From positions 42,374 to 106,373 of the IMG/VR virus record IMGVR_UViG_3300028591_000010: a DNA stretch of 64,000 bases. One strand, written 5' to 3'. The first letter of the stretch is position 1, and each line of letters begins with the position of its first letter. The notes under the pieces are model-generated. The model did not search any database and was not told the DNA's origin. It saw nothing but the letters and a program-made list of their open reading frames with translations. Shown piece after piece: positions 4,692 through 47,702 of this stretch. The stretch comes from a virus. Lineage: Duplodnaviria > Caudoviricetes. Both the position numbers and the translations under genes were made by a program.

Positions 4692-4752
4692 TTGTGTGTA
4701 GGGATTCGAACCCTATTACGTAATTTTTCATACGCAGCCTCCAGGATCACAC
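4692..4752 (-). ncRNA. Degenerate tRNA-like element upstream of primase
   Basis: T-arm TAGGG-TTCGAAT-CCCTA, GTGTG/CACAC acceptor-like pairing and one internal hairpin; no canonical D arm. Confidence 0.55.
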
Positions 4753-5026
4753 TTCAGGTCATCTTAAACTCTTTTGTATATTCTTTGTCTTTTACACAGT
4801 TTGAATAAAACTTCCAACCCACATATCACCATGTTTATTTCTAAGAGGAGTGATATGATTTGACCTCTTCGTTAGGGGCTGACAGGATTAACCTATCAGT
4901 CCTCCACCACTGACCGTTTTCATCAACCACATATAGATATGAGGACAACTCCATCTCAATTTATAGAAATAAAGTTTATCCGTCCTATCTAAGTGGATGT
5001 ATCTTATGATTTCCTTTTCAGGTATA

Positions 5027-5623
5027 TCAAAAAGGCAGGTCGTCAGCACCTGTTGAAGTCTCAGTCACCGGAGTAGCTGCTACGCTAAGCGGATCTGCAG
5101 CAGGCTCGTTGTCTGCTACAACTGGACGCTCAAGAAGATCGTTCTTCCAGAGCTTAATCTGAGACTCTGTTACACTCATAGGTTCAACGAATGCACCAAG
5201 AGAACTTACTTTCGTAAATCCTTTCTTGTCATAAACCACCTTAAGACGAAGAGGAGTAGCCAACTGAACTGTTTCCAGCTGAGTTTTAACCCAATTTATC
5301 ATTTCAATAAACGAGCTACCTTCAAACTCATTATGACTACCGTTAACAGAATCTATTACCTGCAGAATACGACCGAACTGCTGATTATCGCGCTGCTGAA
5401 GTTCTTCATCAGTCTTAATCCACATATTCTTCTCGTTCTTCCACTCAGTCATAGTTGCTGTCTGACCCTGTTCATTCTCAAAGATTATCTCCAAGAAATC
5501 ACGTCCTTGAGGTGTTTTATTTACATTAACTTCTTTTAAAGTTACATTTTCGTTGATGCCTACAGGCATATAGGAGCTTGTAAACTCCTGATTATTTGTT
5601 GTTGCTGTTTTTGTACTATACAT
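5027..5623 (-). CDS. Single-stranded DNA-binding protein (crAss-type)
   Basis: Acidic flexible tail ending GADDLPF; lies between the annealing ATPase and primase. Confidence 0.75.
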   Translation of the reverse strand: MYSTKTATTNNQEFTSSYMPVGINENVTLKEVNVNKTPQGRDFLEIIFENEQGQTATMTEWKNEKNMWIKTDEELQQRDNQQFGRILQVIDSVNGSHNEFEGSSFIEMINWVKTQLETVQLATPLRLKVVYDKKGFTKVSSLGAFVEPMSVTESQIKLWKNDLLERPVVADNEPAADPLSVAATPVTETSTGADDLPF

Positions 5624-5649
5624 AATTTCCGATATTGACTCTAAGGTTC

Positions 5650-6393
5650 TTATTCAGGTTTATAAACACGATCCCAATAGGTTGTTATAGATCCATCATC
5701 GTTTCCGGTAGCAATGACAATGTCCTTGCCCGCGATATGTCTAGCGCGAGCTTCCATGATCGTTCCATCTCCTCCGGATTTAAAACTAATGTGCGTTTCA
5801 TTATCCTTCCGATAGACGTATCCGACTGCATCAGCCATTCCGCAGACAATCTTTCCAAGTTTTCCAACGAGGTCGATTTCTTTGGCGTTGACCTCTTCGC
5901 CATCTTTATCGGTGATACTATCTTTGACATGTCCTATTAGGATAAACTCGTCACACAAATCTTTGAACATATCGATTACTTTCTTTACAGCATCGCGTAA
6001 GTACTTATAACCTGCACCTCTTGCGAGTGTTGTAACATCAGTACCTTTCCAGTTTTTACCCAGTTCAGTCTGCTGATACAATTTGCAAGCATAAGACATA
6101 CATATGTCCTCTAATCGTGTAGCATTATCTATTGTTATATGTTTATAGAAATTATGTCCTACCTCATCGTTCTTAGCTCTAATGGCTTGTGCTATCTCTC
6201 CCAGATCATTGATGGTACGTGCCTGAACAGCTAGCGCATCTATGAACTGAGATCCGCCTTCAAGGTCTATGATGAGATTATTCTCCAACTGTGCTACACA
6301 CGAAGTCTTACCAGACTTAGGAAGTCCGTATAGGATTAAATATGTAGGATTAGTAGAGACTGCAGGAACTTTTTGAGTAGGTAATGTTATCAT
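5650..6393 (-). CDS. AAA_24/Sak4-like ssDNA-annealing ATPase
   Basis: YGLPKSGKT, IIDLEGG, ITIDNAT, ILIGH and ADAVGY motifs; adjacent to SSB. Confidence 0.8.
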   Translation of the reverse strand: MITLPTQKVPAVSTNPTYLILYGLPKSGKTSCVAQLENNLIIDLEGGSQFIDALAVQARTINDLGEIAQAIRAKNDEVGHNFYKHITIDNATRLEDICMSYACKLYQQTELGKNWKGTDVTTLARGAGYKYLRDAVKKVIDMFKDLCDEFILIGHVKDSITDKDGEEVNAKEIDLVGKLGKIVCGMADAVGYVYRKDNETHISFKSGGDGTIMEARARHIAGKDIVIATGNDDGSITTYWDRVYKPE

Positions 6394-6414
6394 ATTGACT
6401 TAAAGTTCTAATAA

Positions 6415-6909
6415 TTAAAGGATGTTAATATTAATGTTCTTAGCACCCTTAATATAAATGTCGATGATAGTCTTCTTCTTGTTCTCAGCAAGAGAATTCA
6501 GGAAGGAAATATTACCGAAGTCCTCGTAATCGAAGAAATCGTAACCAATCTGAATATTATTCTCGTAGAAAACAATAGGAGTACCATCTGACAGAGTATA
6601 ACACTTACCGATAATGTACGGGAGCTTATACTTCTTGGTATACAACTTATAATTGGTAAGGAACTTACCAGCATCATACAACTTGGGACCGCCCGTCAGG
6701 ATAATATCACCTGAAGTTTTGCTGAGGAAATAATCAGCGTCCTCATTCTTTGTACTCAGATTCTTGAACAAATACTGGTTCTTGTCGATTATATCAGTAA
6801 GAATGATATCATCGAGAATCTTAGAATAGTTTGTACTGCTGGGATTAGCCAGAAAGGAATAATTCTTATTGTTGTTCTTAGTCTTACCAAAAGTGAAAGT
6901 CTTTGTCAT
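6415..6909 (-). CDS. Hypothetical protein
   Basis: Intact 164-aa ORF in the operon. Confidence 0.7.
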   Translation of the reverse strand: MTKTFTFGKTKNNNKNYSFLANPSSTNYSKILDDIILTDIIDKNQYLFKNLSTKNEDADYFLSKTSGDIILTGGPKLYDAGKFLTNYKLYTKKYKLPYIIGKCYTLSDGTPIVFYENNIQIGYDFFDYEDFGNISFLNSLAENKKKTIIDIYIKGAKNININIL

Positions 6910-6954
6910 AATTCAGCCTAAATTTAAAAGTTAATACTTGTCATCCACAACGTA

Positions 6955-7878
6955 TTAGCTTTCAATCAGATTATTAAACATAAGGTCATTCTCGAATTCA
7001 AGTATACAAGGTTTACCTGCATCTCTGTTTTTCAACATATGCATGTAGACTTTGTTTTGTGTAGGTAGATGATTCGGACCATATTCTTGTATGTTCAAAA
7101 TCTCTGGTCTATGCATTACGAGCACATAATCACTCGCTTGAAACATTGCATCGGATGACGATAAATCGCTGCGCATTGGGTAATGACTCAGCGGATTGTT
7201 TATCCTTTCTGAAGATTCAATGTTTCTATTCATCTGTGCTATTTGCACTACTGACGTTAACGGGAACTTTTTAGCTTGTATGAAAACACGCTCAAGTTCT
7301 GCTGTTGTCTCTATTACAGAACCAACTTGTTTCGTCAGCAGAGTATGGTCATACACTATTAAGAAGTGCTTGCCCGTATCTTTCACATAGGTGAAATAGA
7401 ATTCATTTATAATACGTCTTACATCTTCAGGAGTACCTGGATTATCTACAAAATAGATAGGATATTCCTTTAGCTGATTAGATACTCTAATGACTTCCTT
7501 AAAGGTATTGTCATCGAGGTCCGTCTCCGAACTATACAAGGTAGAAGTCGTTTTACGAAGTTTATTCGAAAGCGTTCTTCCAACTTGCCTAAATCCAACC
7601 ATCTCTAATGAGAATGATAAGATGATTATATCTTCATTAGGATTCAAATCAATCACATCAGTAGTTAGCTCATTAACAAACGAGCTCTTACCGGAACCAG
7701 AGATACCAGCTATGGTATAAACGGTATTTGGTTCAATACCTCCCATACACTGCTTATTAAACTTAGACCACCTAGTTTTCAATGAAACAATATTATGTTC
7801 CCTTCTACCTCTGATATAGTTGATAGCTTCTTGAGCTACAACACTCATTGGACGTACTTTAGATGATATCTGTTCCAT
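6955..7878 (-). CDS. DnaB-like (SF4) replicative helicase, C-terminal-domain type
   Basis: AGISGSGKS, FSLEM, YDH, AQMNR, SDLSSSDAMFQASD and KNRD motifs. Confidence 0.9.
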   Translation of the reverse strand: MEQISSKVRPMSVVAQEAINYIRGRREHNIVSLKTRWSKFNKQCMGGIEPNTVYTIAGISGSGKSSFVNELTTDVIDLNPNEDIIILSFSLEMVGFRQVGRTLSNKLRKTTSTLYSSETDLDDNTFKEVIRVSNQLKEYPIYFVDNPGTPEDVRRIINEFYFTYVKDTGKHFLIVYDHTLLTKQVGSVIETTAELERVFIQAKKFPLTSVVQIAQMNRNIESSERINNPLSHYPMRSDLSSSDAMFQASDYVLVMHRPEILNIQEYGPNHLPTQNKVYMHMLKNRDAGKPCILEFENDLMFNNLIES

Positions 7879-8425
7879 AAGAATTTACTGCTATTTTGTT
7901 CGTATCTTCCATTTCTTCCTCGATGGCCTCCCATTGGCTTCTAGTGAGCCAATTCCACATAGTCATCATATAACTAAGGGAGCCTTCTCTCATGCGCTTA
8001 GACACCTCGTAGTCGAGGCATTTAATTATATGCTCTGCCATAGCGGAGCTTTTACCACATTTAGTATTGAAGAAATGCCGACATTTATTTACATTGGCAC
8101 GAAGATAGCTTTTAGTGCCATCTTTACGCATCACATATACTGGATACATATCGTAAAACAAGTCGAAATAGCTCTTATTAGGAGTTATTGCTTTATTCAA
8201 CTTGTCTGTTGGTTGATATGTCACAGAGTCTCCTCTCTCTATCGACTCGACTAATAAATTATCGATTAAGTATGATATCTCGTCGTCGCTGATTAGGCTG
8301 ACAATCTTGCGGACGTCTTGATATGATGGTTGATTCTTATCCAATACCATACTTAAGAACAGTAATTGATTTGAGTTTAGCTCTGGAAATTCATCCAAGA
8401 GCTTAGTGTTTACTTCAATAATCAT
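7859..8425 (-). CDS. Putative replication initiator/helicase-loader-like protein
   Basis: FDLFYDMYP and WL..QWE motifs resemble phage replisome organisers; lies between polymerase and helicase. Confidence 0.5.
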   Translation of the reverse strand: MIIEVNTKLLDEFPELNSNQLLFLSMVLDKNQPSYQDVRKIVSLISDDEISYLIDNLLVESIERGDSVTYQPTDKLNKAITPNKSYFDLFYDMYPVYVMRKDGTKSYLRANVNKCRHFFNTKCGKSSAMAEHIIKCLDYEVSKRMREGSLSYMMTMWNWLTRSQWEAIEEEMEDTNKIAVNSYGTDII

Positions 8426-8454
8426 ACTGTTGACTCGGGGTTCTAAGTTGGTTA

Positions 8455-10320
8455 CTAAAATAATGATAGCTGTTGTTCAGTGAAGTCCGCTATCACTTTT
8501 TTGGCTTCACTGATATAGTACCGATAGTTAATCTTTCGATCTTCTATCTTGCGATCATCAAACTTATTCAGGATTGTTACTCCTGATTTTGTTAACATAT
8601 TTGTTCGGTCTCTATCGTCTTCAGGATTATCCTTGAAGAGATATGCTCCGTTTGTACTTGCGTAAAATCTATTGATACGTTGTACAGGTTTATCACCATG
8701 TATAACTTTAAACTTCTTGTCTACTGCTTGTGACATCAAGAAATCACGGATTTCTCTATCCTTCTCAATAGTTTCTGTCACTGGAATATGATGAACAAAG
8801 TAATTTATAACTGCCTTAGGTATGACTACAGGTGCTAGTCCCTTACCTAATTTGTTTTTAGTTATAAACATACCTTTTTCTTCTATCTCACCATTCTTCA
8901 AGACCCCAAAGTAGTCGTTGATAGCGTATTGATAGAATGCTTCGTACTCATCGGTTTCAAACATAAGCTGTGTAATCTGTTCAACCTCTGAGATGGCTTC
9001 CTGAATTCCTTCTCTAAGGCTGTTTTTAGCCCTGTAGACGACGCCATCGGTGTTGACCTGTATAATCTCACATCCGAGCTCTAAAAGCCTGTCTACGAGC
9101 ATTAAAAGGATTAGCTGACCGTTTATTCTAATCTTAAAAACATTGAACGGATCATACATCCAGCTTACCTCCTGTTGCATTTTACCTGTAGGAGAATTAA
9201 GCACGATCTTTAGAAACAAGTTCTTAATCTTTTGACCTGTACGTTTTGCTTCTACTCGCTCAGCATATAAGTCAGCGAATATATCACAAAAGATTTTTCC
9301 TAAGTGGCGAGGTCCCCATTGATATTTAATCAAGAAGGACGGATACATCGAAGTCACATCTGCGTGACCTATAAACTCGTCATCTTTAGGTAGGAATATC
9401 TGCGGTGTGTGGATGGAGTGTATACCACCCACGCCTACAGAGTATACCACGTTTGAGAGAACAAACTTCTTCTCATAGCCTTTGCGTTCTTTAGAGTATA
9501 CGACTTGTTTCTTCATATCTTCTAGAACGTCTTGTAACTTTGGATTTTTGTATTTTATATATGGCAATATGACATCCTTCAATGGAATATAATCCATTGG
9601 AGAACGCATCTCCTTTATAACATTTTTAGGAATACCTGTTCTCTTAGAATATTCTTCTAACAGAAAGGTTTCTGCCATCTTCACACTATCCATAGACAAA
9701 CAGTCTATGCCGTGTTCTTGTTCAATGAACAAACGCAATTCAATATCTGGTTTCAAACGGTTTAATAACTCTTCTGTTGAATCTACGTCGTTTATATTAT
9801 ATGCAATCATCTCATCGATGTCATCATCTTTGATAGGAGCATTAAAGTCACCATCATACTCCTGCACATTTCTATAATGCATTGTCACCTGCATAGTCTT
9901 AAGACCAACACGTAGTTTTCTACTGAATTGCATTGTGAGCAAATCCATCGATTCGAAGTAATGTGCATACTTCCATCGCTTAATCCGCTCGTATTTTTCA
10001 TCCTCCGTTTCCACTATATATTTCGATAAGTTGTAAAGAGACTGACATATCTTTAAATAAGACATATTAGACAACTTATAATAGTAATCTATTATATAGT
10101 TAATTACAACATCATCATAGTGATGATTATTATAACCACAGAACATCTTTTCAGAACTATCATAATAGAAAAAATCAACTAGACTGTCTAGCTGATTCTT
10201 TCTATTAGATATTTCGAATTTATGTATTTGTCCACTTTCAGTATCTTTACAGCAACAGTGGAATGCGTTAGGGAAGATCTCTACGTCATATACGTAGACT
10301 CGTCGATTTCGTATCCACAT
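8455..10320 (-). CDS. DNA polymerase family B with 3'-5' exonuclease
   Basis: ExoI YDVE, GYNNHHYD and YNINDV; polymerase motifs DVTSMYPS, KIVLNSPTGK and NTDG. Ends QQLSLF followed by TAG TAA. Confidence 0.93.
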   Translation of the reverse strand: MWIRNRRVYVYDVEIFPNAFHCCCKDTESGQIHKFEISNRKNQLDSLVDFFYYDSSEKMFCGYNNHHYDDVVINYIIDYYYKLSNMSYLKICQSLYNLSKYIVETEDEKYERIKRWKYAHYFESMDLLTMQFSRKLRVGLKTMQVTMHYRNVQEYDGDFNAPIKDDDIDEMIAYNINDVDSTEELLNRLKPDIELRLFIEQEHGIDCLSMDSVKMAETFLLEEYSKRTGIPKNVIKEMRSPMDYIPLKDVILPYIKYKNPKLQDVLEDMKKQVVYSKERKGYEKKFVLSNVVYSVGVGGIHSIHTPQIFLPKDDEFIGHADVTSMYPSFLIKYQWGPRHLGKIFCDIFADLYAERVEAKRTGQKIKNLFLKIVLNSPTGKMQQEVSWMYDPFNVFKIRINGQLILLMLVDRLLELGCEIIQVNTDGVVYRAKNSLREGIQEAISEVEQITQLMFETDEYEAFYQYAINDYFGVLKNGEIEEKGMFITKNKLGKGLAPVVIPKAVINYFVHHIPVTETIEKDREIRDFLMSQAVDKKFKVIHGDKPVQRINRFYASTNGAYLFKDNPEDDRDRTNMLTKSGVTILNKFDDRKIEDRKINYRYYISEAKKVIADFTEQQLSLF

Positions 10321-10347
10321 GACTCAAAGGTTCTTTAGTTTATACTA

Positions 10348-10468
10348 GTAGAATGGTGAGGAGTCGAACCTCACATCACCGATTGGAGGGAAACCTTATT
10401 AAAGGAAATATTGAGTTTCTCGAATATCTTTACACCATCCCCGTTCTTACCTTTAAATGACATTCTAC
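10348..10468 (-). ncRNA. tRNA-like element (acceptor stem plus T-arm) with ~85-nt internal domain, upstream of PolB
   Basis: GTAGAATG/CATTCTAC stem stacked directly on GTGAGG-TTCGACT-CCTCAC. Confidence 0.65.
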
Positions 10469-10708
10469 ACTTGCGCACACCGTGGAATTCAACCACTCTC
10501 CGTTTCGAATGAGACGCTTGGCGACTCACGAAGAACTGCGCGGTCACCCCCGATTCTTTCGAATCTGCCGATGTCGTGACATGCAGTAGTGTGCTACACA
10601 GTTACGTTTTAGTTCCGCTATCGGGGAGCTCAACTCTCGTATTACATTTTTTCCGTTTGCTACGAATTTCACGTAGCGATGGTGTACTAAAAGAGGCTTT
10701 ACTGTGCA

Positions 10709-11560
10709 TTATGCGGCTTGAGGCAAGATCATACGACCCTTCTTACGCTTATGGTCTTTCAGGTTTGATGCTACAAGCTTCTTATTCAGAGCTTTAGCCT
10801 CGTTCGTAATCTTCTGTGCCTTTCTCAGCAGCTTAGAGTTTTTATCCAGCTCATTCACACGATGACCATCACCGTTGATGTCTTTCAACTCTGCTATTTG
10901 CTTTTCCTGATACTGTGCAGTACCAGATTCACTGATTTTGTACCGACCAGTGAGCGGTAACTTGTCAAACATAGAGACAACGAAGTCTCTTATTCGTATC
11001 AAAGCCTGTTCCTTCTCAGCTTCCCAAGCAGGAATCAATTCGTCCTTAAACAAATCGTCGTCAGGACAAGGCTTCGGATGTTTCTTCTCCCATTTCTTGA
11101 GCTTATCTTGAGTATAAAACTCCATCTTGGCTGCTTTGCCTAGATTCTTCCACAGTTTCTTTTGATAATCCTGTGAGTTGGGATACTCTGATGGATAGTC
11201 CCATTTCTTAAGTTCGACTGTTCCATCCTTATGTTTTATCCACTTCTCTCCGCGTATTCTCTTATAAAGAGACTTGCACTGTGGATACTTCTCGTGTTTC
11301 CAATTACAAGTGAGTTGATGATACGTTAATCCGTATTTATCAGGTTTATCGTTAATCACCATATATGCTCCAGCCATATTAGGTCCTACATTGAATCTAG
11401 ATAGCTTATTTGTTATTGTATTCCACGGAACCTGATATATCTTCTTATCAGAAAACTTTTTAGGTACGGTACAATTTCTAACGGAGAATTGACGACTCAT
11501 GGCTGCAAGATGCGCTACTTTTCTTCTACGCACCTTAGGACGTACACTGCGACTTCCCAT
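10709..11560 (-). CDS. Basic hypothetical protein ending in ...PQAA
   Basis: Intact 283-aa Lys/Arg-rich ORF. Confidence 0.75.
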   Translation of the reverse strand: MGSRSVRPKVRRRKVAHLAAMSRQFSVRNCTVPKKFSDKKIYQVPWNTITNKLSRFNVGPNMAGAYMVINDKPDKYGLTYHQLTCNWKHEKYPQCKSLYKRIRGEKWIKHKDGTVELKKWDYPSEYPNSQDYQKKLWKNLGKAAKMEFYTQDKLKKWEKKHPKPCPDDDLFKDELIPAWEAEKEQALIRIRDFVVSMFDKLPLTGRYKISESGTAQYQEKQIAELKDINGDGHRVNELDKNSKLLRKAQKITNEAKALNKKLVASNLKDHKRKKGRMILPQAA

Positions 11561-11589
11561 ATCAGTTTAGCTATTAAATCTAACATAGG

Positions 11590-12288
11590 TTATGCGGCCT
11601 TTTTAAGGCCTTCTGAGCTCTTTTTAGAGTTCAGCTGGACAGTTGTACTACCCTTCTTCTTTGCTGCCTTCTCAGTGGCCCATTTGTCGCGTAGAGATTT
11701 TACTTGAGCTTTGAAGTTTTTACGATTCTTCTTGCTCATATTAGCAACATTATAGCGCTTTTTGAGAACGTTCTTACCCTTTGGGCGGCTATGTGGAACG
11801 TTCTTGTTCTTGGGTTTCTTCGGAATCTCCTCTTTGGATATGACTGATTCCATCTTCTTAGCATATGGATATATCTTTGCTTTCGGAGGAGCAATCTCAC
11901 GAATCTTCGCGAGTATATCCTGATTACCATCTATAGAGAAGTACGTATCTCCGTGATACTTATACTGAATCTTGGCTTTTGCCAAAGCCTCCTTCATCAT
12001 AGCACTATCCTTTGTGTCTAGCATTACGAGGATGCTATATTCCTTCGGAGCATTAAGTTGCTCTATGAGTTTCTTAACCAACTCCTCTGTCTTCTCTTCC
12101 GTAAACTTCATACGAGCACAACGGCGACGTAGTGCATTAATTCGGAAATTACGGAACTGTTCTTCACGAGCCTTTTTACGAGCTTCTGCGTCTTTAATAG
12201 ACTTTACCTTACCTGTAGGAACATTAGATGTATTCTTATTGGTAGCCTGACCATTCTTGGCAGTTTCTACCTGCGTATTCTTATTCAT
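11590..12288 (-). CDS. Highly basic hypothetical protein ending in ...GLKKAA
   Basis: Intact 232-aa Lys-rich ORF. Confidence 0.75.
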   Translation of the reverse strand: MNKNTQVETAKNGQATNKNTSNVPTGKVKSIKDAEARKKAREEQFRNFRINALRRRCARMKFTEEKTEELVKKLIEQLNAPKEYSILVMLDTKDSAMMKEALAKAKIQYKYHGDTYFSIDGNQDILAKIREIAPPKAKIYPYAKKMESVISKEEIPKKPKNKNVPHSRPKGKNVLKKRYNVANMSKKNRKNFKAQVKSLRDKWATEKAAKKKGSTTVQLNSKKSSEGLKKAA

Positions 12289-12587
12289 ATTGATTATGAT
12301 GTTTTTAAAAGTTAAAATAATTTGTTAATTGTACGCGCAAACCAATTCATGCGCTTGAGCATATAGACTATATTATTGTGGTCATTATAGACACCAATAA
12401 CTTTGTAGTCTTTTGACAGCTCTTCGAGACGAGTATTACTGATAATACCGTCACTGGTTATTTGGATATATTTTTGTTTCATATTGATTACGATTTAAAA
12501 GTTTTGGGAAATATTTTTGTGATCGGTTACGGGAACGATCCGCTCATACATAGAAATGTATGCACCAACATTCCGATCGGTTTTCGC

Positions 12588-13142
12588 TTATATAGCGAAA
12601 TCCTGCTCAAACATAGTAGCAGTCTTATCGTCAAGAGTAATCTCAGTATTGTTATTGAAATTCTCCATATTAGTGTCAAACTTATTAGCCTTCAACTGCA
12701 AATCCTTAATCAGAGCTGCAATCTTAGCACTTGTGAAAATCTCCTCCTTACCAATATTCTTAAGACCCTTCTGAGCCTTAGTCTTCTGGTCAAGCGTAGG
12801 AATCATCTTAAGCTGTGCAATAGCCTCCTTCATCTCACAAGCCATGAAGATGCTATAATTGTTGGTCTTCTTGAAATCCTCAGCATTGAACGTATCAATA
12901 CCCATATTTAAATAAAACAACATACCTTTAATATACACCAGCTTCTCTGCCATCTGAGTAATCTCGTTATAGAGAGCCTTCAGATCGTGTGTACGGAAGC
13001 CATTCTTAATCTCTTTCTTAGAGAGCAGATTCTCTGCCTTAATATAGCTCCAATACTTCTTCTTCTTACTATTAATATCATCACGCATATTAATAATCTT
13101 ACCTGAGTTCAACTTAATTGATTTCGTCATATATATAAACAT
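12588..13142 (-). CDS. Hypothetical coiled-coil protein (start may be ATG 13130)
   Basis: Intact ORF with helical composition. Confidence 0.7.
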   Translation of the reverse strand: MFIYMTKSIKLNSGKIINMRDDINSKKKKYWSYIKAENLLSKKEIKNGFRTHDLKALYNEITQMAEKLVYIKGMLFYLNMGIDTFNAEDFKKTNNYSIFMACEMKEAIAQLKMIPTLDQKTKAQKGLKNIGKEEIFTSAKIAALIKDLQLKANKFDTNMENFNNNTEITLDDKTATMFEQDFAI

Positions 13143-13241
13143 TTGATTTAGTTAGACTTCGTGTTAATTAAATTGAATTCGAGTATCATCTACCTGTGAC
13201 TTATAGCAAATCGCTTCACTATAAATCTAAACAAATCTCTG

Positions 13242-19223: not shown

Positions 19224-19793
19224 TTAAACGTTAATTTTGGTTTTTAATTTGCGTCTAGTTCTCGACAACGTTGACTTTATAGTTCCTGTTGGGATTTTTA
19301 ACGCTTTACTAATCTTTTTAACTGGTAAATTATCGACATAAAACAACTCAAAGATCTTACGAGTGACCTCTGGTAGTTTTTCGAATTCAGCGACAACTTG
19401 TTTATACGTCAAATGATTGACTAGATCATCCTCCGCTGATACTTGAACATTTTTAAGTGACAGTCTATCACCTTCATCTTCAAGTACAAGTCGCTTATTA
19501 CGCGTCTCACGTAAATAATCTACAGCTGTATGATTAGCTATAATTCTCAGCCAACCTCCAAAGGAGTTGTAAGCTGTGAATGTCGAGAGTTTATCATACA
19601 CTTTAAGAAATACAATATTAGCGATATCTTTCGCTTCATCCATATCTCTAAGATATTGGAATAACACACTTTCAACAAACGGTTTGTATCTTCTATAGAG
19701 TGTATTAAAAGCAAGCTCATCGCCTGCTTGCGCCTTTTTGATTAGACCAATTTCAACATCGGTGATTCTAGGATTCTTCATAATCAAAAACAA
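19224..19793 (-). CDS. ECF-type (sigma-70 group 4) RNA polymerase sigma factor
   Basis: Region 2 AQAGDELAFNTLY...DEAKDI...FGGWLRIIANH.AVDYLR; region 4 ISKALKIPTGTIKSTLSR. Confidence 0.92.
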   Translation of the reverse strand: MFLIMKNPRITDVEIGLIKKAQAGDELAFNTLYRRYKPFVESVLFQYLRDMDEAKDIANIVFLKVYDKLSTFTAYNSFGGWLRIIANHTAVDYLRETRNKRLVLEDEGDRLSLKNVQVSAEDDLVNHLTYKQVVAEFEKLPEVTRKIFELFYVDNLPVKKISKALKIPTGTIKSTLSRTRRKLKTKINV

Positions 19794-20433: not shown

Positions 20434-20931
20434 TTAATACTTACCTTCTATACAACATATCAAGAATTCTGCTAAGTTATCAACATACTGATACTTTGCT
20501 TCTTTCTCCTCCTGCGTACAATTGGGAGAAGGTAATAGCCAAGAAAGATAATCTCGAATGATTTCAATCTGTATATCAAAATCATCTTTACCTTTCTGTT
20601 TAGAGATACTGTATGCATGTTCAATGCACTGAAATTCTTTCATGAACCATTTAACCCATTTAGAGATACGTTCCCAATATTCTTTTTCTTCATTGGTTAA
20701 ATCGTCCCAATTAATAGTTTTATCAAACTCAAATTGATATTTACCATGTTCAGCAATGCCCAATGCTATACGAGTAGCATTATTACGCTGATCTTTATCA
20801 CGATATATACCAATAAAATTTGAATAAACATGATCTATCCACTTTTCTTTAGCTTTACGCCATTTAAGTGCATAGTTTACCATCTTGGGACAACGGTCCC
20901 GTAACATTTCTTTGTATCCTAATTTCTTCAT
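20434..20931 (-). CDS. Hypothetical protein
   Basis: Intact 165-aa ORF. Confidence 0.7.
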   Translation of the reverse strand: MKKLGYKEMLRDRCPKMVNYALKWRKAKEKWIDHVYSNFIGIYRDKDQRNNATRIALGIAEHGKYQFEFDKTINWDDLTNEEKEYWERISKWVKWFMKEFQCIEHAYSISKQKGKDDFDIQIEIIRDYLSWLLPSPNCTQEEKEAKYQYVDNLAEFLICCIEGKY

Positions 20932-20935
20932 ATTG

Positions 20936-21009
20936 TGATTCCTAATGGATTCGAACCATTGACCGACAGATTAGAAATCTGTTGCTCTATCCAGCTGAGC
21001 TAAGGAACC
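20936..21009 (-). tRNA. tRNA-Arg(TCT)
   Basis: GGTTCCT/AGGAATC acceptor, D-loop AGCTGGATA, ACAGA-TTTCTAA-TCTGT anticodon arm, TTCGAAT T-loop. Confidence 0.9.
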
Positions 21010-21082: not shown

Positions 21083-21130
21083 GGAGTGAGGTAGGGATTC
21101 GAACCCCATACTCCAACATAGTCCTCACTC
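21083..21130 (-). ncRNA. Mini-tRNA element directly 3' of the tmRNA coding piece
   Basis: GAGTGAGG/CCTCACTC stem with T-arm TGGGG-TTCGAAT-CCCTA; short linker with no D or anticodon arm. Confidence 0.7.
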
Positions 21131-21350
21131 TGTCTGGGCACTTAGGTAGCCCGTAACACCGACTTTACGCTGCCTCCTTGAGGCCCGTATAGTCTGCAAT
21201 GTTAATATTGCCAGTTAATTTTATATCAGAGCGCTTCACGACTTACCGTCTACCGCTGTCAAATCCAAATAGGCCCAGATACTCATGTTAGACTGGTGGA
21301 CCTAGAGGGATTCGAACCCTCGTCCAAACGGCTTATTCTCAGTCACGCTA
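21131..21350 (-). ncRNA. ssrA: Circularly permuted (two-piece) tmRNA; tag peptide (A)GNINIADYTGLKEAA
   Basis: Acceptor piece ...GGACGAGGGTTCGAATCCCTCTAGGTCCACCA ends at 21294. After a 17-nt intervening segment the coding piece starts GGGCCTATTTGGATTTGAC at 21276. The acceptor stem has G3-U70; the tag ORF 21212-21165 follows TTAACT. Outer boundaries are approximate. Confidence 0.88.
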
Positions 21351-21553
21351 AGATTCTTTTGATGTGATGTTGTCAAATCATGCTACATCTCTTGTGAACT
21401 CTATGATGATCAGTCACAGAATTCGATTTAAGGCCATTTTCAGCCGTTCTAAGGCGTTTTCTAACCTCTAATGGGTAGCTAATCCATAAGCGGTTATTAA
21501 ACGCTTCAAAACGGCTTTTTGGGACCCCATAAAAAGCACATTGCCCTACTACT

Positions 21554-22533: not shown

Positions 22534-23010
22534 TTAATGATTATAATATACAGATTTGATTGTGTGTACAACCTTTTCTGTAAAACCATATTTCTTTGCA
22601 ATATCCTTAGAGATTACGCCTGATTCTGTAGCGAGTATTTCTACGCTTTTACGAGTAGTTTCATCTCTATTACATTCTGTCATGAGATGCAAAACAAAAG
22701 AGGAATAATCACGTGTTTTCTTACATATGGAAATATCTTCAGAAAAGTGTTTTCCAATATGTGCTACAGCGGCCACAATTTTCTCTTGTGATGAAGAGTC
22801 TTCAACAGAAGCGTGCACATGTATACTTGGAATCTTTTCTGCAGCTAATATAGCATCTGAAATTGATTCTGCATCTTTGTATACAATTGTGACATTATCA
22901 GTATAGGAGATAATACCATTATCAATTAATGTTAATACAAGAGCATCGTGTGCAGCTTGCGTCAATTCTCTACCGTTGTACAATACTGTGAGACAGCAAA
23001 TCTTACTCAT
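22534..23010 (-). CDS. Hypothetical protein
   Basis: ORF track 22534..23052; ATG 23010 overlaps the end of the upstream gene. Confidence 0.65.
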   Translation of the reverse strand: MSKICCLTVLYNGRELTQAAHDALVLTLIDNGIISYTDNVTIVYKDAESISDAILAAEKIPSIHVHASVEDSSSQEKIVAAVAHIGKHFSEDISICKKTRDYSSFVLHLMTECNRDETTRKSVEILATESGVISKDIAKKYGFTEKVVHTIKSVYYNH

Positions 23011-23545
23011 ATGTCGTTTCGATTTTAGTTCGTACTTTGTAGGTTTTGCCACCTATAGTAGTATCGTGCTGAGTATACTCAACTCTACCTACAGGTGCTG
23101 AATCAGGCCTATAAGGCTGACCACCGGCACTGCTGCTTGTAGGGGGGAGCACAGACTTTGTCGAATCAGAAGATGGTAAATTGTTGTATACGTCTTTGTT
23201 CGCTCGATACTCATACACTATACCACGTTTAGACACATGTCCTTCACGTTTAATACACACAGAAGCAACGTTCTTTAACACTTCTTCAGGCATAGTGTTA
23301 AATACGTCATCAATAGCTTGACCTTCAAGATATTTTGTTCTGAAAGCCAATACATCGTCCACACTGTTAAACAGCGGGTTGATGTAGTTCTGTACGCCTG
23401 CAGCTATCGTGCTGTCGACATACTCCTCAGTGACTCTGTCTCTGGAACCTAATCCGAAAACGTCTTTCTTACCACAGGAACTAATACCTATGGTAACAAG
23501 GGAAGCTATCATTAGCACCCCCAAACAATACAGGAATTTTTTCAT
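23003..23545 (-). CDS. Putative lipoprotein
   Basis: MKK, then a hydrophobic stretch and an ISSC lipobox-like Cys. Confidence 0.7.
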   Translation of the reverse strand: MKKFLYCLGVLMIASLVTIGISSCGKKDVFGLGSRDRVTEEYVDSTIAAGVQNYINPLFNSVDDVLAFRTKYLEGQAIDDVFNTMPEEVLKNVASVCIKREGHVSKRGIVYEYRANKDVYNNLPSSDSTKSVLPPTSSSAGGQPYRPDSAPVGRVEYTQHDTTIGGKTYKVRTKIETTYE

Positions 23546-23734
23546 CTTTGATAAATGAATTAAATAAAACTTATAGTTTGAATCCAGTCTTTAAGGAAGA
23601 CTTTGAAAAGACCTACTTTAACCATCCCATGTTCATACTAAGAGATAAGATAAATCCTAATGTGAGAATAACAATGAGAATAGATTTAAGAGTTTCTTCT
23701 TTCATATTTAGTGAATTAAATTAATAAAAGTTTG

Positions 23735-23806
23735 TAGTCTCAAGGAGAGTCGAACTCCTCTTTACAGAATGAAAATCTGTCGTCCTAACCGATAGACGAT
23801 GAGACC
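23735..23806 (-). tRNA. tRNA-Glu(TTC)
   Basis: GGTCTCA/TGAGACT acceptor, ACAGA-TTTTCAT-TCTGT anticodon arm, TTCGACT T-loop. Confidence 0.9.
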
Positions 23807-23870
23807 GAATGCCCCACCGCTGTGGGGCCAATCAATTCAATTTATGGAAAAAAGAATGTCCGCTAGGACG

Positions 23871-23944
23871 TGGACCAGTCTGGGCTTGAACCAGAGACCC
23901 CCTGATTATGAGTCAGGTGCTCTAACCAACTGAGCTACAAGTCC
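23871..23944 (-). tRNA. tRNA with CAT anticodon (Ile2-like; elongator Met possible)
   Basis: CCTGA-CTCATAA-TCAGG anticodon arm; TAGCTCAGTTGGTTAGAGC D arm; TTCAAGC T-loop. Confidence 0.85.
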
Positions 23945-34159: not shown

Positions 34160-34210
34160 GATCTACGATAGGTCCTTATCAAGAGCGAGGTTCGAATCCT
34201 CGGTAGATCG
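34160..34210 (+). ncRNA. Mini-tRNA element
   Basis: Perfect 7-bp GATCTAC/GTAGATC stem, CGAGG-TTCGAAT-CCTCG T-arm and a single internal hairpin. Confidence 0.7.
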
Positions 34211-34254
34211 CTCTAATATGAGTATATTAGGCATAATCATGTAAAATTTAAATT

Positions 34255-34306
34255 TTGGTGGTTTTGGAACAGTTTCGGCTGGGAGGTTCGATTCCTCCAC
34301 CAACCA
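34255..34306 (+). ncRNA. tRNA-like element ending ACCA, 1 nt before the suppressor tRNA
   Basis: GGAGG-TTCGATT-CCTCC T-arm; imperfect acceptor stem; CAG-TTTCGG-CTG hairpin. Confidence 0.55.
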
Positions 34307-34307: not shown

Positions 34308-34382
34308 TGCTCCATGGTGTAATGGTAGCACGGGAGGCTCTAACCCTCCAGGCCCGGGTTCGATTCGATGGTGGGGCGACCA
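34308..34382 (+). tRNA. Amber suppressor tRNA (anticodon CTA), Gln-like body
   Basis: TGCTCCA/TGGGGCG acceptor with encoded ACCA; GGTGTAATGGTAGCAC D arm; GGAGG-CTCTAAC-CCTCC anticodon arm; irregular T-stem. Confidence 0.88.
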
Positions 34383-38442: not shown

Positions 38443-38631
38443 ATGATACACATAAACAATCATAATATAACTGGTGTTTATAGTGGACATAGAGATATTG
38501 TAAAAGTATTTAGCGGGCTTAAGCTCGTATGGAGTAAAGTAACAGAAATATTGAGTTGTTATTCTAATGGGTATTGGATTGATCAATACCCATGGATAGA
38601 CGATGCTTTCTGGAAAGACAATTTTAATTAA
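38443..38631 (+). CDS. Small structural-module protein
   Basis: 62-aa ORF tightly packed between neighbours. Confidence 0.65.
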   Translation: MIHINNHNITGVYSGHRDIVKVFSGLKLVWSKVTEILSCYSNGYWIDQYPWIDDAFWKDNFN

Positions 38632-38632
38632 T

Positions 38633-41600: not shown

Positions 41601-44600
41601 AAGGATTTGATACATTCTCGGGTAGTAGATATGGATGGGAATCTCAATTTGAGATGATATATCCAGATCCAGATGACATAGAAAAAGATGACTAGAAGAA
41701 CGGATTAAATAAGGGTAATCCTAATTCTAAGTTTGCAAAAACAGCTAAACCGTTCGTAGATTGGTACAAATGGTTAATAAGTACTAGAAACAACCATCAG
41801 AAATTTAGAGACGAAGCAGCAGACCATCTTGACCTATATAAGCTTGCGGCATATTATATATTTGTATTAAGATTTGCACTTGTTGACTCGTTAGAACGTA
41901 ATGCTCAGATTAAAACGTATGATGGCGTACACTTCCATTACGAACCTTGGGATATGGATATTGCCTTAGGTAATAAGAACGATGGTGGTATCGCATTTAA
42001 TCCTCCTGTAGATCGTAATACTAAGTTGAATACAACTACGTATGCCATATCTGGTAGATCTGCAGATTAGAATGGAAACATTATAAGTTCTAACTGGTTG
42101 TGGGATGCTCTTGAAGCGTGGCCAATGTGGATGAACGAAATTGTTCCAAAAGTGGCAGATGCTTTATTTAAAACGGGTATACTTACTTACGATAATGTAA
42201 GTAATATGTTTGATACAGAATATGCGAACAAGTGGTGCGAGATTATGTATAACAGAAGTGGCCACTTTAAGTATGTAGAATCTGCAGGTGGCGATTTTAC
42301 TCGTTGGCTCGGGTGGTTACAGGGAGCTCGTATGTCACACAGACACTGGTGGTTAAGTACTTCAATGGACTATTATGACGCAAAATGGTTCTGTGGTGAT
42401 TATAAAGCACACAAAATATATCTTGCAGCAAACGTATCAGCTGACCCTAATAAATACATTAGGGTAACGCCGAACGGTTCTACATATATGACTGTAACCG
42501 TAAACCAGCTTGATGAAAACGATAACGAAATAGAGGGTAGTGAAGAAGTAGATACCACAAGAGAAGTATCAAAATAGAATCCTTTAATATATAGTATGGA
42601 AGACGGAGCTAGTACAAAAGCTCCTATACACATATACGGTGCAAACTTTATGGAATCTATAGATATGAGTGATATTGCTACCGGTATAGATGGATTAGAC
42701 TTAGTTGGTACATATTCTGAAGTATTAGGCGCTCCTCTTAGAGAACTTAATATAGGTACTCCATTAGTAGGAAGCGGTAATTAGTTTACAACAATACTTA
42801 GTCCATCTACATGTGGTGTATCTCCTGTTCAAAGTGGCAAAAATGCATTCTAGAATCTTGAGACGTTGAATATTCGAGGACATAAGCACCTCGGTAACGT
42901 ATTACAGTTCACGTTTGGTATCAATTAGTGGATTAGAGACTTAAACATGACTCAGCTCAAGAATTTCTATGCTATGGGCTCTAATCTAATTAACTTTTAT
43001 AGTTCTAACGACGGTAATAATTTTAACGATATAGAGCTTCCTTCATCTGTATCCATATTAAATATAAAGAACTCTACATGGAACAACATGACGTTCTGGG
43101 ATACTATAGAAGGATAGAATGAACAAGCTACTCTAAATTATCATCAAACAGAAATAGATACTGGCATATATACAAATATACCTCCGACTGTAAGTGAGGT
43201 GCACTTCTTAGGATCTACAGGTAGAACTAGAGAATCATTGTTATTTATTAGAGAGTGGATTAAATCTATTGTAGCAACTTATGGAGAGAGTGCTCTTTCT
43301 AATTACACTCTCGAAATGGATGATGTATTCTGGTCACCTGATGTAATAGGAAATGATAATGATCTGCTTACGTACGACGAACTCAGACTTATATCTAAAA
43401 CAAGTGGCGGACATCCTAATATTAGAGGATACGTTATGCTGAAATACGAAGGAGCTGGAACAGAGCTTACCTCGCAACAGCTTACAGAAATACGTAACTG
43501 GTTTGGAGATTCTGTATTTACTAAAGGTTCAGCTGGTCTTGTAGTCGACTATAAACACGATTATATTCAGATAAATATTGGTGGTGATATCACCATAGTA
43601 AACGGTGATGTTTATCTAACAGAAGGAAACAATGCCATTCTTAGTGCTACTGAATTCCATCTTGCTGAACCAGATCAATAGAGTTTGTAGAACTACGTAT
43701 GGGCATTAAGTGAACATGGATCTGCTCAAGCATCTCCGTAGATATATGGTGTGAGAATAGAACAGTCTGAACGTGATCACAACTGGTATTTGTTAAGTTC
43801 TGAATCATAGGTTGGTCATGATTACCAAGTAGACGTAAAGGTTGCTGCAGGAAATATTACATATGTAGCTACTATAAATATCATAGCTGCTAAATATCCA
43901 TCTTCTGTGTTTATCGATGTACAACAACCCACTACCGGAGCAGGTAATGTATCTGTTATTAGAACAGTAGGCAATATTGTTACGTTGCATCAAAACGGTA
44001 TGTAGTGTAATCTGTTTATGTCTACAAATGATAATTCTTATACAGCATCTATAAACAGTATATTATACACTATTACTGACGGGGAATATACAACTACATA
44101 TTCTTCTACAGCAGGTCCTACTTGGAGTGGCGATTTATATAATGTGGGAGATCATCTTAATATACAAGAGAATACCTAGGCACTTGGTATGAATAATACT
44201 AAATGTATTAAAGCTACTGCTATGGGTGTTCCTTACGATAACACTATATATGAGTATACTGTGACGGCAGTTATTGAATTTACATCTAATAAGAGAATGA
44301 CTGCTACTAGAAGAATACTTGTTATGAACGATGGTGTTGCTGTGGTTTCTGTAATGCAAGAACACATATATAGCGCGTTCTCAACTGCTTGGAATACTTA
44401 GTTTGGAGAACAATTGACCAAATCATAGTTATATAGAACAGATTTGTTATCAATGACCGGCGCTCTTACATTCAATACCAGCGTCGATAATATAATAGCA
44501 TATTCTGGAACATCTTCAATACTTGCATATTTGCCTAATATAACAGATCTTGTATTTGATGGAAATGCTAATTTAACGAGTACGTTCACCACATTGTCTA

Positions 44601-45292
44601 ACGAAACGATAGATCAGTTCATATTTAATAATACTCCAAATTTATAGACGTTATCTATACAAAACTGTTCTAATCTTACGGATGATATAGACTTGAGCAT
44701 GTGTCCTGAATTGTTAGAAGTTGATGCTTCTGGAACAACGATTAATGTAAATATTCCCACAGGTTCTAAGATAACTAAATATGAGCTGGGACTTCCCACT
44801 GAAGTTAATATTATTAATCCTACTGTATTACAACCTAGTGGAGTTGAGTTAGATGGGTATAAAGACATAACGTCTTTGGATATTAGAAATATACCTAATA
44901 ATAAGACTTACGCCATGTTTGGTAAAATAATGTAGAATTATTTTGGTAAAATACTTCTTTATACAGCGTATGATTATAGTGGCGGTAAAATACAGGAAGT
45001 AAATGGATCATATGCGTCTGGCAGCTGGTGTACTACACTTATAAATATAGTTGGACATAATAATATTAAAGCTACTTTTGATTCAACCGGTATTATTGCA
45101 ACTATTGTTGAGTAGGATAGAGAAAATATATGGAGTTGGATAAATCATACATCTCCTTTTATTGTATCTATTGGAGGATGGTCTGATAGAGCTTATTATA
45201 TCAGATTTGAAGGTGCTATGAGTTATTAGCCAACTTACTTTAAAGTTGAAGATACAGATACAAATGAAATACTATTTTATTGGAGGGCTTAA
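38633..45292 (+). CDS. Giant (~2200 aa) protein with CotH-kinase-like and leucine-rich-repeat regions (many in-frame TAG)
   Basis: All plus-strand ORF fragments from 39890 to 44935 share one frame; motifs QANYADSSGVHN, FLGQYVFMDDK, FALVDSLERN and PWDMDIALG; TAA at 45290. Not every internal codon was checked. Confidence 0.78.
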
Positions 45293-45295
45293 CAT

Positions 45296-47521
45296 ATGAC
45301 ACACTTAAATATACAACAAGGATAGAATATAGAGGTAGTAAGTACTAACCTTATAAAGAAGTTATATGAAGCTGCTTTATCTGTACCTGAACCATTAGAA
45401 GGAGAGTAGGATGCTGCATATATGTCTGGTAATCTATAGGTAGATAAGAGTTATAGAGCATAGGTTGAGTATTTGACTAATAGATTTGATGATCTGCATA
45501 TAAACGTAACAGATAGCTATTATATACCATTTGAAGATAGTGCTGTATTAAACGTATTGCTTGCTAATAATATAGGATCTGATGGCATTGGAATAACGGA
45601 AGCAGAAGCTGCCAATGCTACTCTTACAAATAATACATTTAAGAACAATACTACTATTACATCGTTTAATGAATTTTCTTATTTTACTAGAGCAAATATT
45701 AATCCAGTAAATAATTTATTTGAAGGATGTACTAATTTAGAGGAAGTTGATTTATCTTAGGCTACAAAAATATCAGAGGGAGAATTTTTATCATCTGGAA
45801 TAAAAGAAGTATATGCACCATCATTAATAGAAATAGGATAGGCCGCTTTTAGAAATAGTTCAGTTGAAACAGTAACTTCTTTAGGTAACATAGTAAGTAT
45901 TCCATTTGGTTGTTTTATGTATTGTAATGATTTACAAACAGTACAATTACCTAGTTCAGTAACAACTATTTCTCCTGGAGCATTTTCTGTATTAACTAAT
46001 GGTGTTAGTAGTCTTACTTATATAAATTTAAATAATGTAACATCAATAGATAATTCAGCGTTTACAAATTGTAAATTATTAAATATTGATGCTTCAGATT
46101 TATCTAATTTAGTATCTATAGGAGGGGAAACTTTTTCTAGTTGTTTTAGTATTCATGGAGAATTAAATATGCCCAATTTAATATCTGCAGGAAATAAGTG
46201 TTTTAATAGTTGTAGTAGGATAACTAAAGTAAAATGTTTAGGTAAAATAACAACTATTCCAGAATTTTTTATGGTTAAATAGTTTAGTTCTGGAATGGCA
46301 TTAACTGAAGTTTATTTACCTTATGAATGTACATCAATTTAGTGGAATGGTTTTAATGGGTGTTCTGCATTAACAACAATTAAACAATATACACAATCAG
46401 TAGATAATTGGGTTAATGGAGAACCTTCAAGTTACGGAAGAATTACTAGAATAACAGCTTTCGGAGATTAGTGTTTTTAGAATTGCAGTTCCTTAACTAT
46501 CACAACAGAAGATATTGAAAATGCGGTTACTATTGGGATGAGTGCTTTTGCAAGTTCTGGACTTACCGGAAATATAAATCTTCCTAATTTAACATCGCTA
46601 GGACAATACGCATTTTATGCGAGCGGAGTAACAGGAGCTACTGATCTTGGAAGTATTACAGAAATCCCGCAGTATTGTTTCTAGTATTCCGGATTGTAGT
46701 CAATAACACTCCCTAGTACTTGTACTACTATAAAAAGTAGAGGATTATCTGATATGACTACTCTTACTACTGTAAATGGTATGTCAAATGTTACTACTAT
46801 AGAAAGTTATGCTTTTTATAATGATACTAATCTAACGTCTGTAGCTGGATTATCTAATGTTACTAGTATTGGAGAAGGTGCATTTTATAATTGTCCTATT
46901 ACTGGAACACTAAATCTTCCAAATCTTGTTTCTTTAGGAAATATTGCATTTCGATAGACCAATATAACAAGTGTATAGAATTTAGGATAGGTTTCCGAAA
47001 TAGGAGATCCTTTTTGGAATTGCCCTAGTATTACAGAAATAATTTTACCTACTACATTAAGAAAATCGGGATGCTTTTATAATACACATGTATCTAAGCT
47101 TATATATCCTTATGGATATACAGAATAGACTGCATCATCTCTGTGTGGAAATCAACAAGGAGCGTATTTATAGTATATACAATTTCCTAGTACTATAACA
47201 AAAATAGTACTTGACGATATGTATAGAGACTCTGGAAGTAGTAGAATTACTTGTCATGTTGTCATATAGGCTACAACCCCTCCTAATACAAACAGAAATC
47301 CTTCTGATACTGAACGTGCTGGCCTCGGATGGGGATGGGGAGATCCAAGAAATGCTAGATGGTATGTCCCAGATGCAGTAGTAAATACATACAAAGCAGA
47401 TACACAGTGGTCTTCTATTGCAGATTATATATTCCCAATATCTCAATTGGAAGCAGATTCTCCTACTTGTTGGGCTTGGTATCAAGCAAATAAAGATTAC
47501 GGAGTACCTGCACAATCATAA
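45296..47521 (+). CDS. BspA-type leucine-rich-repeat protein (TAG read-through)
   Basis: Repeated LPSSVTTI..AF and VTSIGEGAF..C units; fragments 45473, 45917 and 46754 share a frame; TAA at 47519. Confidence 0.82.
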
Positions 47522-47548
47522 CAGAACCTCAACTGTCTAAAATGAGGA

Positions 47549-47590
47549 TGCATAGAATGGTTAACGTAGGTTCGATTCCTACCTATGCAC
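47549..47590 (+). ncRNA. Minimal mini-tRNA (minihelix with 10-nt linker)
   Basis: TGCATAG-AATGGTTAAC-GTAGG-TTCGATT-CCTAC-CTATGCA. Confidence 0.75.
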
Positions 47591-47599
47591 AATAAATAT

Positions 47600-47702
47600 T
47601 GCGAGGTAGCTTAATGGTAAAGCTGGAGACAAGTGCTTGTAAACGCGTTGTGGCGGCAAGTGAAGGAGGCACCTGTAGATGGTTCGATTCCATCCCTCGC
47701 GG
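47600..47702 (+). ncRNA. tRNA-like RNA with normal acceptor, D and T arms but an expanded anticodon domain
   Basis: TGCGAGG/CCTCGCG, GCTT-AATGGTA-AAGC and GATGG-TTCGATT-CCATC, with a ~54-nt middle domain. Confidence 0.7.

Follow-up and report, generated by a model that had tools for sequence, protein, structure and literature searches.

Why would a bacteriophage place, between its genes, RNA elements that resemble the top half of a transfer RNA (tRNA) and carry no anticodon? The question is raised by a stretch of 64,000 nucleotides (nt), referred to here as the window, which forms the final 64 kb of the 106,373-bp virus record IMGVR_UViG_3300028591_000010. A preliminary description had noticed in it at least six elements in which an acceptor-like stem is joined to a T-arm, and had proposed that they serve either as processing marks for host enzymes or as decoys for host nucleases directed at tRNAs. 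The phage can be placed by its family-B DNA polymerase (PolB; 8455-10320, minus strand), which has 76% identity with its counterparts in cr272_1 and cr273_1, both from pig faeces, and 68% with that of cr130_1, from a macaque. Both cr272_1 and cr130_1 are classified in Crassvirales, Suoliviridae, Oafivirinae and, judged by this similarity, the source of the window is a Suoliviridae crAss-like gut phage. Few viruses of human and animal guts are more abundant than the crAss-like phages, and little has been established about the way they express long operons in hosts that do without Shine-Dalgarno pairing. We report here that the elements behave as RNA structures under selection, kept at the same gene junctions in related phages, and we weigh what they may be for.

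Examination of the T-arm motif together with folding confirmed the six elements to within 2 nt of the boundaries first proposed. The motif GGTTCRANTCC occurs nine times in the window, whereas 0.06 occurrences are expected from dinucleotide shuffles (an enrichment of about 150-fold), and the nine sites belong to the six elements, to tRNA-Arg, to the acceptor piece of the transfer-messenger RNA (tmRNA) and to a further element at 47600-47702. The motif is absent from the first 42 kb of the 106-kb genome, and the term genome-wide under which the family had been introduced was therefore overstated. Sequence and minimum-free-energy folds gave for all six an acceptor-like stem stacked directly on a 5-bp T-stem that bears the loop TTCGA(A/T/C)T, the acceptor measuring 5-8 bp and the whole forming mostly a 7+5-bp stack. 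The elements thus share with tRNA an acceptor coaxial with a 5-bp T-stem, a T-loop of the form TTCRANN and the G53-C61 pair. The D-arm and anticodon arm are replaced by a linker of 10-19 nt (elements at 47549, 21084 and 34160), a small hairpin (4694 and 34255) or an insert of 87 nt (10348). Short linkers nearly always contain TGG or GG, resembling G18G19 of the D-loop, the residues that in tRNA lock onto the T-loop to form the elbow, and the 3' flank starts with N-CAA or N-ACA, as it does in the phage's own tRNAs lacking CCA. All six are intergenic and lie on the strand of the downstream gene, following local transcription as had been described.

ARAGORN, and Rfam at its gathering score, call none of the six a tRNA, and the mark of a canonical tRNA (RF00005), an anticodon arm whose 7-nt loop bears a conserved anticodon, is absent from the elements. 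In the acceptor piece of the tmRNA (near 21308) ACCA is encoded and a separate 5' strand supplies the partner for a G3.U70 pair; the mini-elements have neither CCA nor G3.U70 and pair with their own adjacent 5' strand. Altogether the window holds nine anticodon-less tRNA-like elements (TLS), as against four ordinary tRNAs (Arg, Glu, Met and suppressor) found with ARAGORN and Rfam (Table 1).

Table 1. Anticodon-less tRNA-like elements (TLS), tRNAs and tmRNA of the window, with the evidence for each
Feature	Positions	Strand	Evidence and location
TLS before primase	4694-4752	-	Sequence, fold; 24 nt upstream of primase ATG (4668)
TLS before PolB	10348-10468	-	Sequence, fold; 28 nt upstream of PolB ATG (10320)
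B-type TLS, second in tandem before PolB	10474-10542	-	Fold, conservation
Conserved three-helix RNA	12520-12578	-	Comparison of 10 sequences
Mini-TLS directly after tmRNA coding piece	21084-21130	-	Sequence, fold
Mini-TLS, first of two before suppressor tRNA and dUTPase	34160-34210	+	Sequence, fold
TLS, 3' end abutting 5' end of suppressor tRNA	34255-34306	+	Sequence, fold
Minimal mini-TLS between two TAG-recoded late genes	47549-47590	+	Sequence, fold, orthologues
TLS with acceptor, D-arm and T-arm intact, 47-nt insert replacing anticodon arm	47600-47702	+	Rfam alignment
tRNA-Arg(tct)	20935-21009	-	ARAGORN, Rfam, sequence
tRNA-Glu	23734-23806		ARAGORN, Rfam
tRNA-Met	23870-23944		ARAGORN, Rfam
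Suppressor tRNA, anticodon CTA, encoded ACCA	34308-34382	+	ARAGORN, Rfam
Circularly permuted two-piece tmRNA	21165-21356	-	Rfam RF04321 (58.2 bits), ARAGORN, sequence

Taken in genome order, the element before primase consists of a 5-bp acceptor (GTGTG/CACAC), an inner hairpin and the T-arm TAGGG-TTCGAAT-CCCTA, while that before PolB has an 8-bp acceptor (GTAGAATG/CATTCTAC), the 87-nt insert, which is unlike tRNA, and the T-loop TTCGACT; the region 10300-10720 gave no Rfam match at E<=10. Two weaker candidates of the preliminary description also proved to be real conserved RNAs. One, the B-type element, has a closing stem CGCGCA/UGUGCG, one long arm and a T-arm-like hairpin with the loop TTGAATT, and belongs to a family found in at least 12 relatives, where the loop is the canonical TTCGATT. 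The other, at 12520-12578, is composed of a closing stem (GATCGG/CCGATC), a TTGG linker, a hairpin and a 3' hairpin whose loop, AUCGUUC, is not a canonical T-loop (the equivalents in G004 and cr272_1 are GTCGATG and TTCGATG). The element after the tmRNA coding piece has an 8-bp acceptor (GAGTGAGG/CCTCACTC), a 14-nt linker with TTGG and a T-arm. The first of the two before the suppressor tRNA has a 7-bp acceptor (GATCTAC/GTAGATC), a 19-nt linker and the T-arm CGAGG-TTCGAAT-CCTCG, its best Rfam match being SpF41_sRNA at only 16 bits; the second, conserved in G001 and G004, has an interrupted acceptor, the linker TTTTGGAAC and the T-arm GGAGG-TTCGATT-CCTCC, and shares the linker TTGGAACAAG with the mini-elements before primase of L066-L073.

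The remaining two elements lie among late genes whose open reading frames (ORFs) are open only with TAG read as a residue (18 in-frame TAGs in 45296-47521, for example). The shorter is reduced to a 7-bp acceptor (TGCATAG/CTATGCA), a D-loop-like linker of 10 nt (AATGGTTAAC) and the T-arm GTAGG-TTCGATT-CCTAC, and scores 17.6 bits under the tRNA model, below the cut-off of 29. The longer, at 47600-47702, is scored as a tRNA by Rfam alone (37 bits), in an alignment that covers the acceptor, the D-arm and the T-arm but passes over the entire anticodon arm. In its orthologues ARAGORN in intron mode returns inconsistent anticodons (Val, Phe, Ile, His, Pro, Cys), which means that there is no conserved decoding loop.

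Evidence that these structures are under selection comes from the way in which their stems change. In six orthologues of the 47549 element all 72 of 72 pair cells are standard, with double changes in six of the 12 pairs; none of 500 shuffles reached the observed value, and sliding the partner strand destroyed the pairing. The ten sequences of the 12520-12578 RNA gave a similar picture (99.4% of cells paired, five pairs with double changes, 0 of 500 shuffles reaching the observed value). Compensatory changes were seen in acceptor and T stems alike: the L012 orthologue of the primase element has replaced TAGGG/CCCTA by TTGGG/CCCAA in its T-stem, and the 34160 counterpart in G001 has the acceptor TCCTATC/GGTAGGA, with pairing kept and a T-loop that has drifted. 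Within the B-type family one T-stem pair alternates between UA and AU at 6:5, and closing stems differ yet stay paired. A neutral tRNA pseudogene is expected to show erosion of its stems and no excess of compensatory changes, and neither the 47549 element nor the 12520-12578 RNA behaves in this way. Because anticodon-less forms are the majority and their stems covary, the elements are, on this comparative evidence, selected RNA structures and not the product of simple tRNA decay.

Two further explanations were considered and rejected. Intron-bearing tRNAs do not account for the elements: at 18-90 nt the inserts could not accommodate a group I intron, and they show no conservation and yield no consistent anticodon. 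Remnants of attP or of integration sites were rejected as well: the elements retain the 5' strand of the acceptor, and its covariation with the 3' strand is explained only by a constraint acting on the RNA.

To follow the positions (slots) of the elements in relatives we used 80 IMG/VR loci around PolB, which after removal of duplicates left 59 distinct sequences for the PolB slot and 42 for the primase slot, 80 loci for the slot at 47.5 kb, and eight complete genomes (the phage's own, five from IMG/VR, cr272_1 and cr130_1). The dUTPase gene and ORF 20931 yielded three loci each as anchors in IMG/VR, and the five complete relatives were used there instead. A first loose scan, for a 6-bp acceptor within 220 nt, gave 0-4 hits per shuffled genome and was replaced by the strict T-loop motif and the slot analysis, whose detector gave hits at 2.4% of 4,000 positions drawn at random from the same loci. 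Occupants were classed as anticodon-less at the PolB slot when they combined a T-arm with an acceptor of at least 6 bp and no anticodon arm. By this count the PolB slot is occupied in 43 of 59 sequences, with 10 real tRNAs (among them Leu, Met, Ser, Ile and His), 2 intron-like forms, 27 anticodon-less forms and 4 with a 5-bp acceptor, and the primase slot in 36 of 42 (3, 3, 24 and 6, respectively). Relatives with intact tRNAs at the same loci, which had been named as a sign of simple decay, therefore exist as a minority only.

The placement of the occupants is strict at these two slots. In most relatives the T-loop is found 46-49 nt upstream of the PolB start codon (39-43 nt in a small number) and is followed by the conserved leader CTAGTATTAACTAAAGAACCTNAGAGTCATG; the primase slot shows the same pattern with the leader CAATACAAAAGAGCTTATAAGCCATG, and at both the end of the acceptor is mostly 16-29 nt from the ATG. 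Occupants persist across relatives whose PolB is only 59-86% identical. At 47.5 kb close relatives carry a mini-element of 41-45 nt, or a tRNA-like RNA bearing a D-arm and an insert of 18-47 nt in place of the anticodon arm, or both, as in the window; here the distance to ORF 47769 is not fixed (57-131 nt). In the eight complete genomes the recurrent slots are those before primase, PolB, dUTPase together with the suppressor tRNA, and the homologue of ORF 47769, and that after the tmRNA. A tRNA-like element immediately follows the tmRNA coding piece in 8 of 8 complete genomes, with acceptors that differ yet are paired (GAGTGAGG, GAATGAGT, GAGTGAGT, TGAGTGT, GCGTCTT) and T stems that do likewise. 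In the window 4 nt separate the 3' end of tRNA-Arg from the start codon of ORF 20434-20931. Five of the seven complete relatives likewise have a tRNA or TLS at a distance of 2-5 nt from this ATG, and so does L091, with a TLS in place of the tRNA; G002 and cr130_1 have a wider gap.

The T-loop consensus, the G53-C61 pair, the pairing of the stems and the 7+5-bp stack are retained across genomes, and the linker or insert is often unrelated even between genomes whose PolB is more than 80% identical. The same slot is used by real tRNAs (Leu, Met, Ser, Trp, Ile), by tRNA-like RNAs with a scrambled anticodon region and by minis of 41-45 nt, and since real tRNAs and anticodon-less forms are interchangeable the selected feature can only be the top half that they share. 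The tRNA-like elements are at least as numerous as real tRNAs in every genome examined, and they are always found on the transcribed strand, between units, often adjoining a tRNA or a start codon.

Taking all these results together, we favour, with a probability of about one half, the view that the elements are tRNA-like punctuation marks that would be cut by host RNase P and RNase Z. RNase P, RNase Z and the CCA-adding enzyme all act on minihelices composed of acceptor and T-arm; the half that is kept is thus the part that these enzymes recognise, as expected of a processing mark. RNase P is also described as acting beyond tRNA, on tmRNA precursors, viral tRNA-like structures, phage RNAs and operon mRNAs (review PMC11143913). 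Under this proposal the elements would be maintained at fixed junctions of polycistronic transcripts as signals for the host's tRNA-maturation enzymes, with RNase P making the 5' cut, the 3' boundary being formed by RNase Z or by trimming and subsequent CCA addition, and the D-loop-like GG of the linker able to close a tRNA elbow. Cutting would free the downstream message from the RNA upstream and leave it a short defined leader, with predicted lengths of about 27 nt (PolB), about 22 nt (primase) and 3-4 nt (ORF 20931). For the last of these, 3' processing of the preceding tRNA or TLS implies, by analogy with mitochondria, a message that would be almost leaderless. The element after the tmRNA would set the 3' end of its coding piece, and the element at 34255-34306 would be released together with the suppressor tRNA that it abuts. 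The positions fit such a role: one element separates two late genes of a single operon, one stands between the tmRNA and the tRNA that follows it, one adjoins the suppressor tRNA, and others precede start codons at a short, fixed distance. Of the original proposal of processing marks, the selected structure, the fixed slots and the interchangeability with tRNAs all came out as it predicts, and it is from these that we infer the cleavage itself.

Several observations weigh against this view. The PolB slot is empty in 16 of 59 sequences and the primase slot in 6 of 42, and the element is thus dispensable at both. All of the elements lack an encoded CCA, a feature favouring bacterial RNase P, and some depart from the 7+5-bp ruler: the primase element with its 5-bp acceptor and the PolB element with a stack of 8+6 bp. 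The real function could also lie in the conserved leaders or in other conserved hairpins next to the elements. As to enzymes of the phage itself, no RNA-processing enzyme was found among 20 early ORFs with Pfam and PHROGs. ORF 22534-23052 was considered as a MYG1 exonuclease and set aside, scoring 17.8 bits against a cut-off of 22.1 and being unsupported by PHROGs or by PDB sequences.

Among the alternatives, the one that survives best, though we consider it rather unlikely, is that the elements are released as small RNAs that act in trans on host factors or on translation. The targets could be toxins of defence systems acting on the acceptor end, the CCA-adding enzyme, the enzymes that modify the T-loop, or EF-Tu; alternatively, such RNAs could control translation as the phage changes over to its TAG-recoded late genes. 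The abundance of the elements relative to real tRNAs speaks for it, as do the conserved elbow-like GG and canonical T-loop, which seem beyond the needs of a bare cleavage mark, the long conserved inserts of the B-type and 47600-47702 elements, which suggest an extra function, and the proximity of two elements to the suppressor tRNA. Strict positions beside specific genes and RNAs nevertheless fit a role in cis better, the linkers and inserts at the PolB slot are mostly unconserved between genomes, and no partner protein is evident among the 20 early ORFs scanned. Moreover, the usual target of defences that cut tRNAs, the anticodon loop, is missing, and together with the strict positions, which argue for a job in cis, this leaves the earlier suggestion of decoys for tRNA-targeting defence without support. 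A more specific form of action in trans, which we hold to be more doubtful still, sees the elements as phage mini-tRNAs that are released, tailed with CCA and stable, and that engage host machinery reading the elbow or the acceptor end; they could, for example, blunt tRNA-directed defence or retune translation at the TAG-recoded switch, and their slots would merely ensure timed co-expression.

We find it improbable that the elements work without being cut, as structures of 5' untranslated or intergenic regions that protect the message from 5' decay or present the start codon to ribosomes not guided by Shine-Dalgarno pairing. At the PolB and primase slots the element stands a fixed distance from the start codon, with a conserved leader directly after it, which is what such a role would produce, but the spacing varies elsewhere, as before ORF 47769, the element after the tmRNA precedes other RNAs and no start codon, a tRNA shape is unnecessary for mere stability, and the same slots are occupied by real tRNAs, which are certainly excised. 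Finally, the functionless drift of decaying tRNA genes is very improbable: real tRNAs are indeed found at these slots in a minority of the sequences (10 of 59 and 3 of 42), and T-loops are degenerate in G001 (34160 slot), in cr272_1 (after the tmRNA) and in the window's B-type element, but the anticodon-less majority has canonical T-loops and stems kept fully paired through compensatory changes, these forms persist across phages whose PolB is only about 60% identical, and decay would not repeatedly spare the top half alone.

If cutting of the elements by RNase P and RNase Z is true, the phage would share the logic of tRNA punctuation with mitochondria, and the presence of tRNA genes at particular gene junctions instead of in clusters would be accounted for. 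It would also provide a mechanism for the maturation of the two-piece phage tmRNA, and many annotated tRNA pseudogenes and intron-bearing tRNAs of phages would be a distinct functional class.

Other conserved sequences were observed around the elements. Between the stop codon of the upstream late gene and the start of the 47549 element lies the motif AACAGAACCTCAACTGTCTAAAATGAGGA (47518-47547, plus strand), in which, among relatives, ACAG/CTGT covaries (also ACAC/GTGT and CAAG/CTTG), as does CCTCA/TGAGG (also CCCTA/TAGGG, CCTTA/TAAGG, CCCCG/CGGGG and GCTTA/TAAGC). This pattern suggests a compact H-type pseudoknot; the segment had no match in Rfam. A 13-nt motif, CTAAYATGAGTAT, stands at 21279-21291 (minus strand), after the T-arm and acceptor of the tmRNA acceptor piece, and again at 34213-34225 (plus strand), after the 34160 element; chance would give about 0.01 such matches. 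It is also present upstream of the suppressor tRNA of G002 and at the corresponding site before dUTPase in G005, for which ARAGORN reports no suppressor tRNA, and it may be a shared processing or regulatory signal. The leaders between element and start codon are conserved for PolB (10320-10347, minus strand, ending in AACTAAAGAACCTTTGAGTCATG) and for primase (4668-4693, minus strand, CAATACAAAAGAGCTTATAAGCCATG), and both carry a motif of the type AGAACC..GAGTC. In many relatives other conserved and structured segments lie farther upstream: GGTCAGTGGTGGAG, a hairpin and CCCC before the primase slot (about 4880-4920, minus strand), and GCACAGTAAAGCCTCT...GTAACTGTGT before the PolB slot (10640-10700, minus strand). 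The suppressor tRNA has two non-standard pairs in its T-stem and scores 31.4 bits against a cut-off of 29; this odd T-arm is conserved in G001 and G004, and a regular one is found in G002 and cr272_1. Lastly, an ECF-type sigma factor is encoded at 19224-19793 (minus strand; Sigma70_r2 52 bits, r4_2 46 bits), with which the phage probably redirects host RNA polymerase.

How do the elements compare with known systems? Canonical phage tRNAs (RF00005) and the species 1 and 2 RNAs of T4 have in common with them the acceptor/T-arm geometry, the T-loop consensus, the slots and the flanks; the elements differ in having no anticodon arm and in falling below the gathering score or escaping detection. 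Non-coding RNAs with a tRNA-like acceptor/T-arm module are also known in YrlA and other bacterial Y RNAs (RF02553) and in SpF41 sRNA (RF02435), but YrlA scored 22.1 bits against a cut-off of 69 with the T-arm only covered, and the elements have no Ro-binding stem, while SpF41 stayed at its 16 bits against a cut-off of 52. Rfam at permissive thresholds gave no family at or near its cut-off for three of the regions, and a full-text search of the literature found no description of such elements in phages. Between the early genes of phage T7 lie processing sites for RNase III, and there, as proposed here, a host RNA-maturation nuclease and conserved intergenic folds split a polycistronic transcript; the T7 signals are double-stranded hairpins cut by RNase III, whereas here the signal would be a tRNA top half cut by RNase P and RNase Z. 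A tRNA-like element through which RNase P or RNase Z sets the end of the adjoining RNA is also known from mascRNA and menRNA (RF01684), which lie at the 3' ends of MALAT1 and NEAT1, and from the tRNA-like units of murine gammaherpesvirus 68. The nearest analogue of the element after the tmRNA is mascRNA, which likewise directly follows a functional non-coding RNA, but these are eukaryotic and animal-virus systems and the Rfam score here is 15.8 bits against 42.5, so that the likeness is one of analogy only.

By analogy, the closest known system would be that of the t-elements of plant mitochondria, tRNA-like folds that serve as marks for cutting transcripts (Forner et al. 2007, PMC1920247). 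Like these and like the tRNA punctuation of animal mitochondria, the phage elements are non-decoding tRNA-like folds at the ends of messages, on the sense strand of polycistronic transcripts; they are exchangeable with real tRNAs, which in mitochondria act as signals for RNase P and RNase Z, and they may be followed by near-leaderless messages, as at ORF 20931. They differ in belonging to a bacteriophage and, presumably, to bacterial enzymes, whose cutting we infer, in having no sequence relationship with t-elements, and in being, many of them, far more reduced (41-47 nt, with neither D-arm nor anticodon arm). Adopting this comparison, the elements described here may be regarded as tRNA punctuation of the t-element kind, in this case in a bacteriophage.

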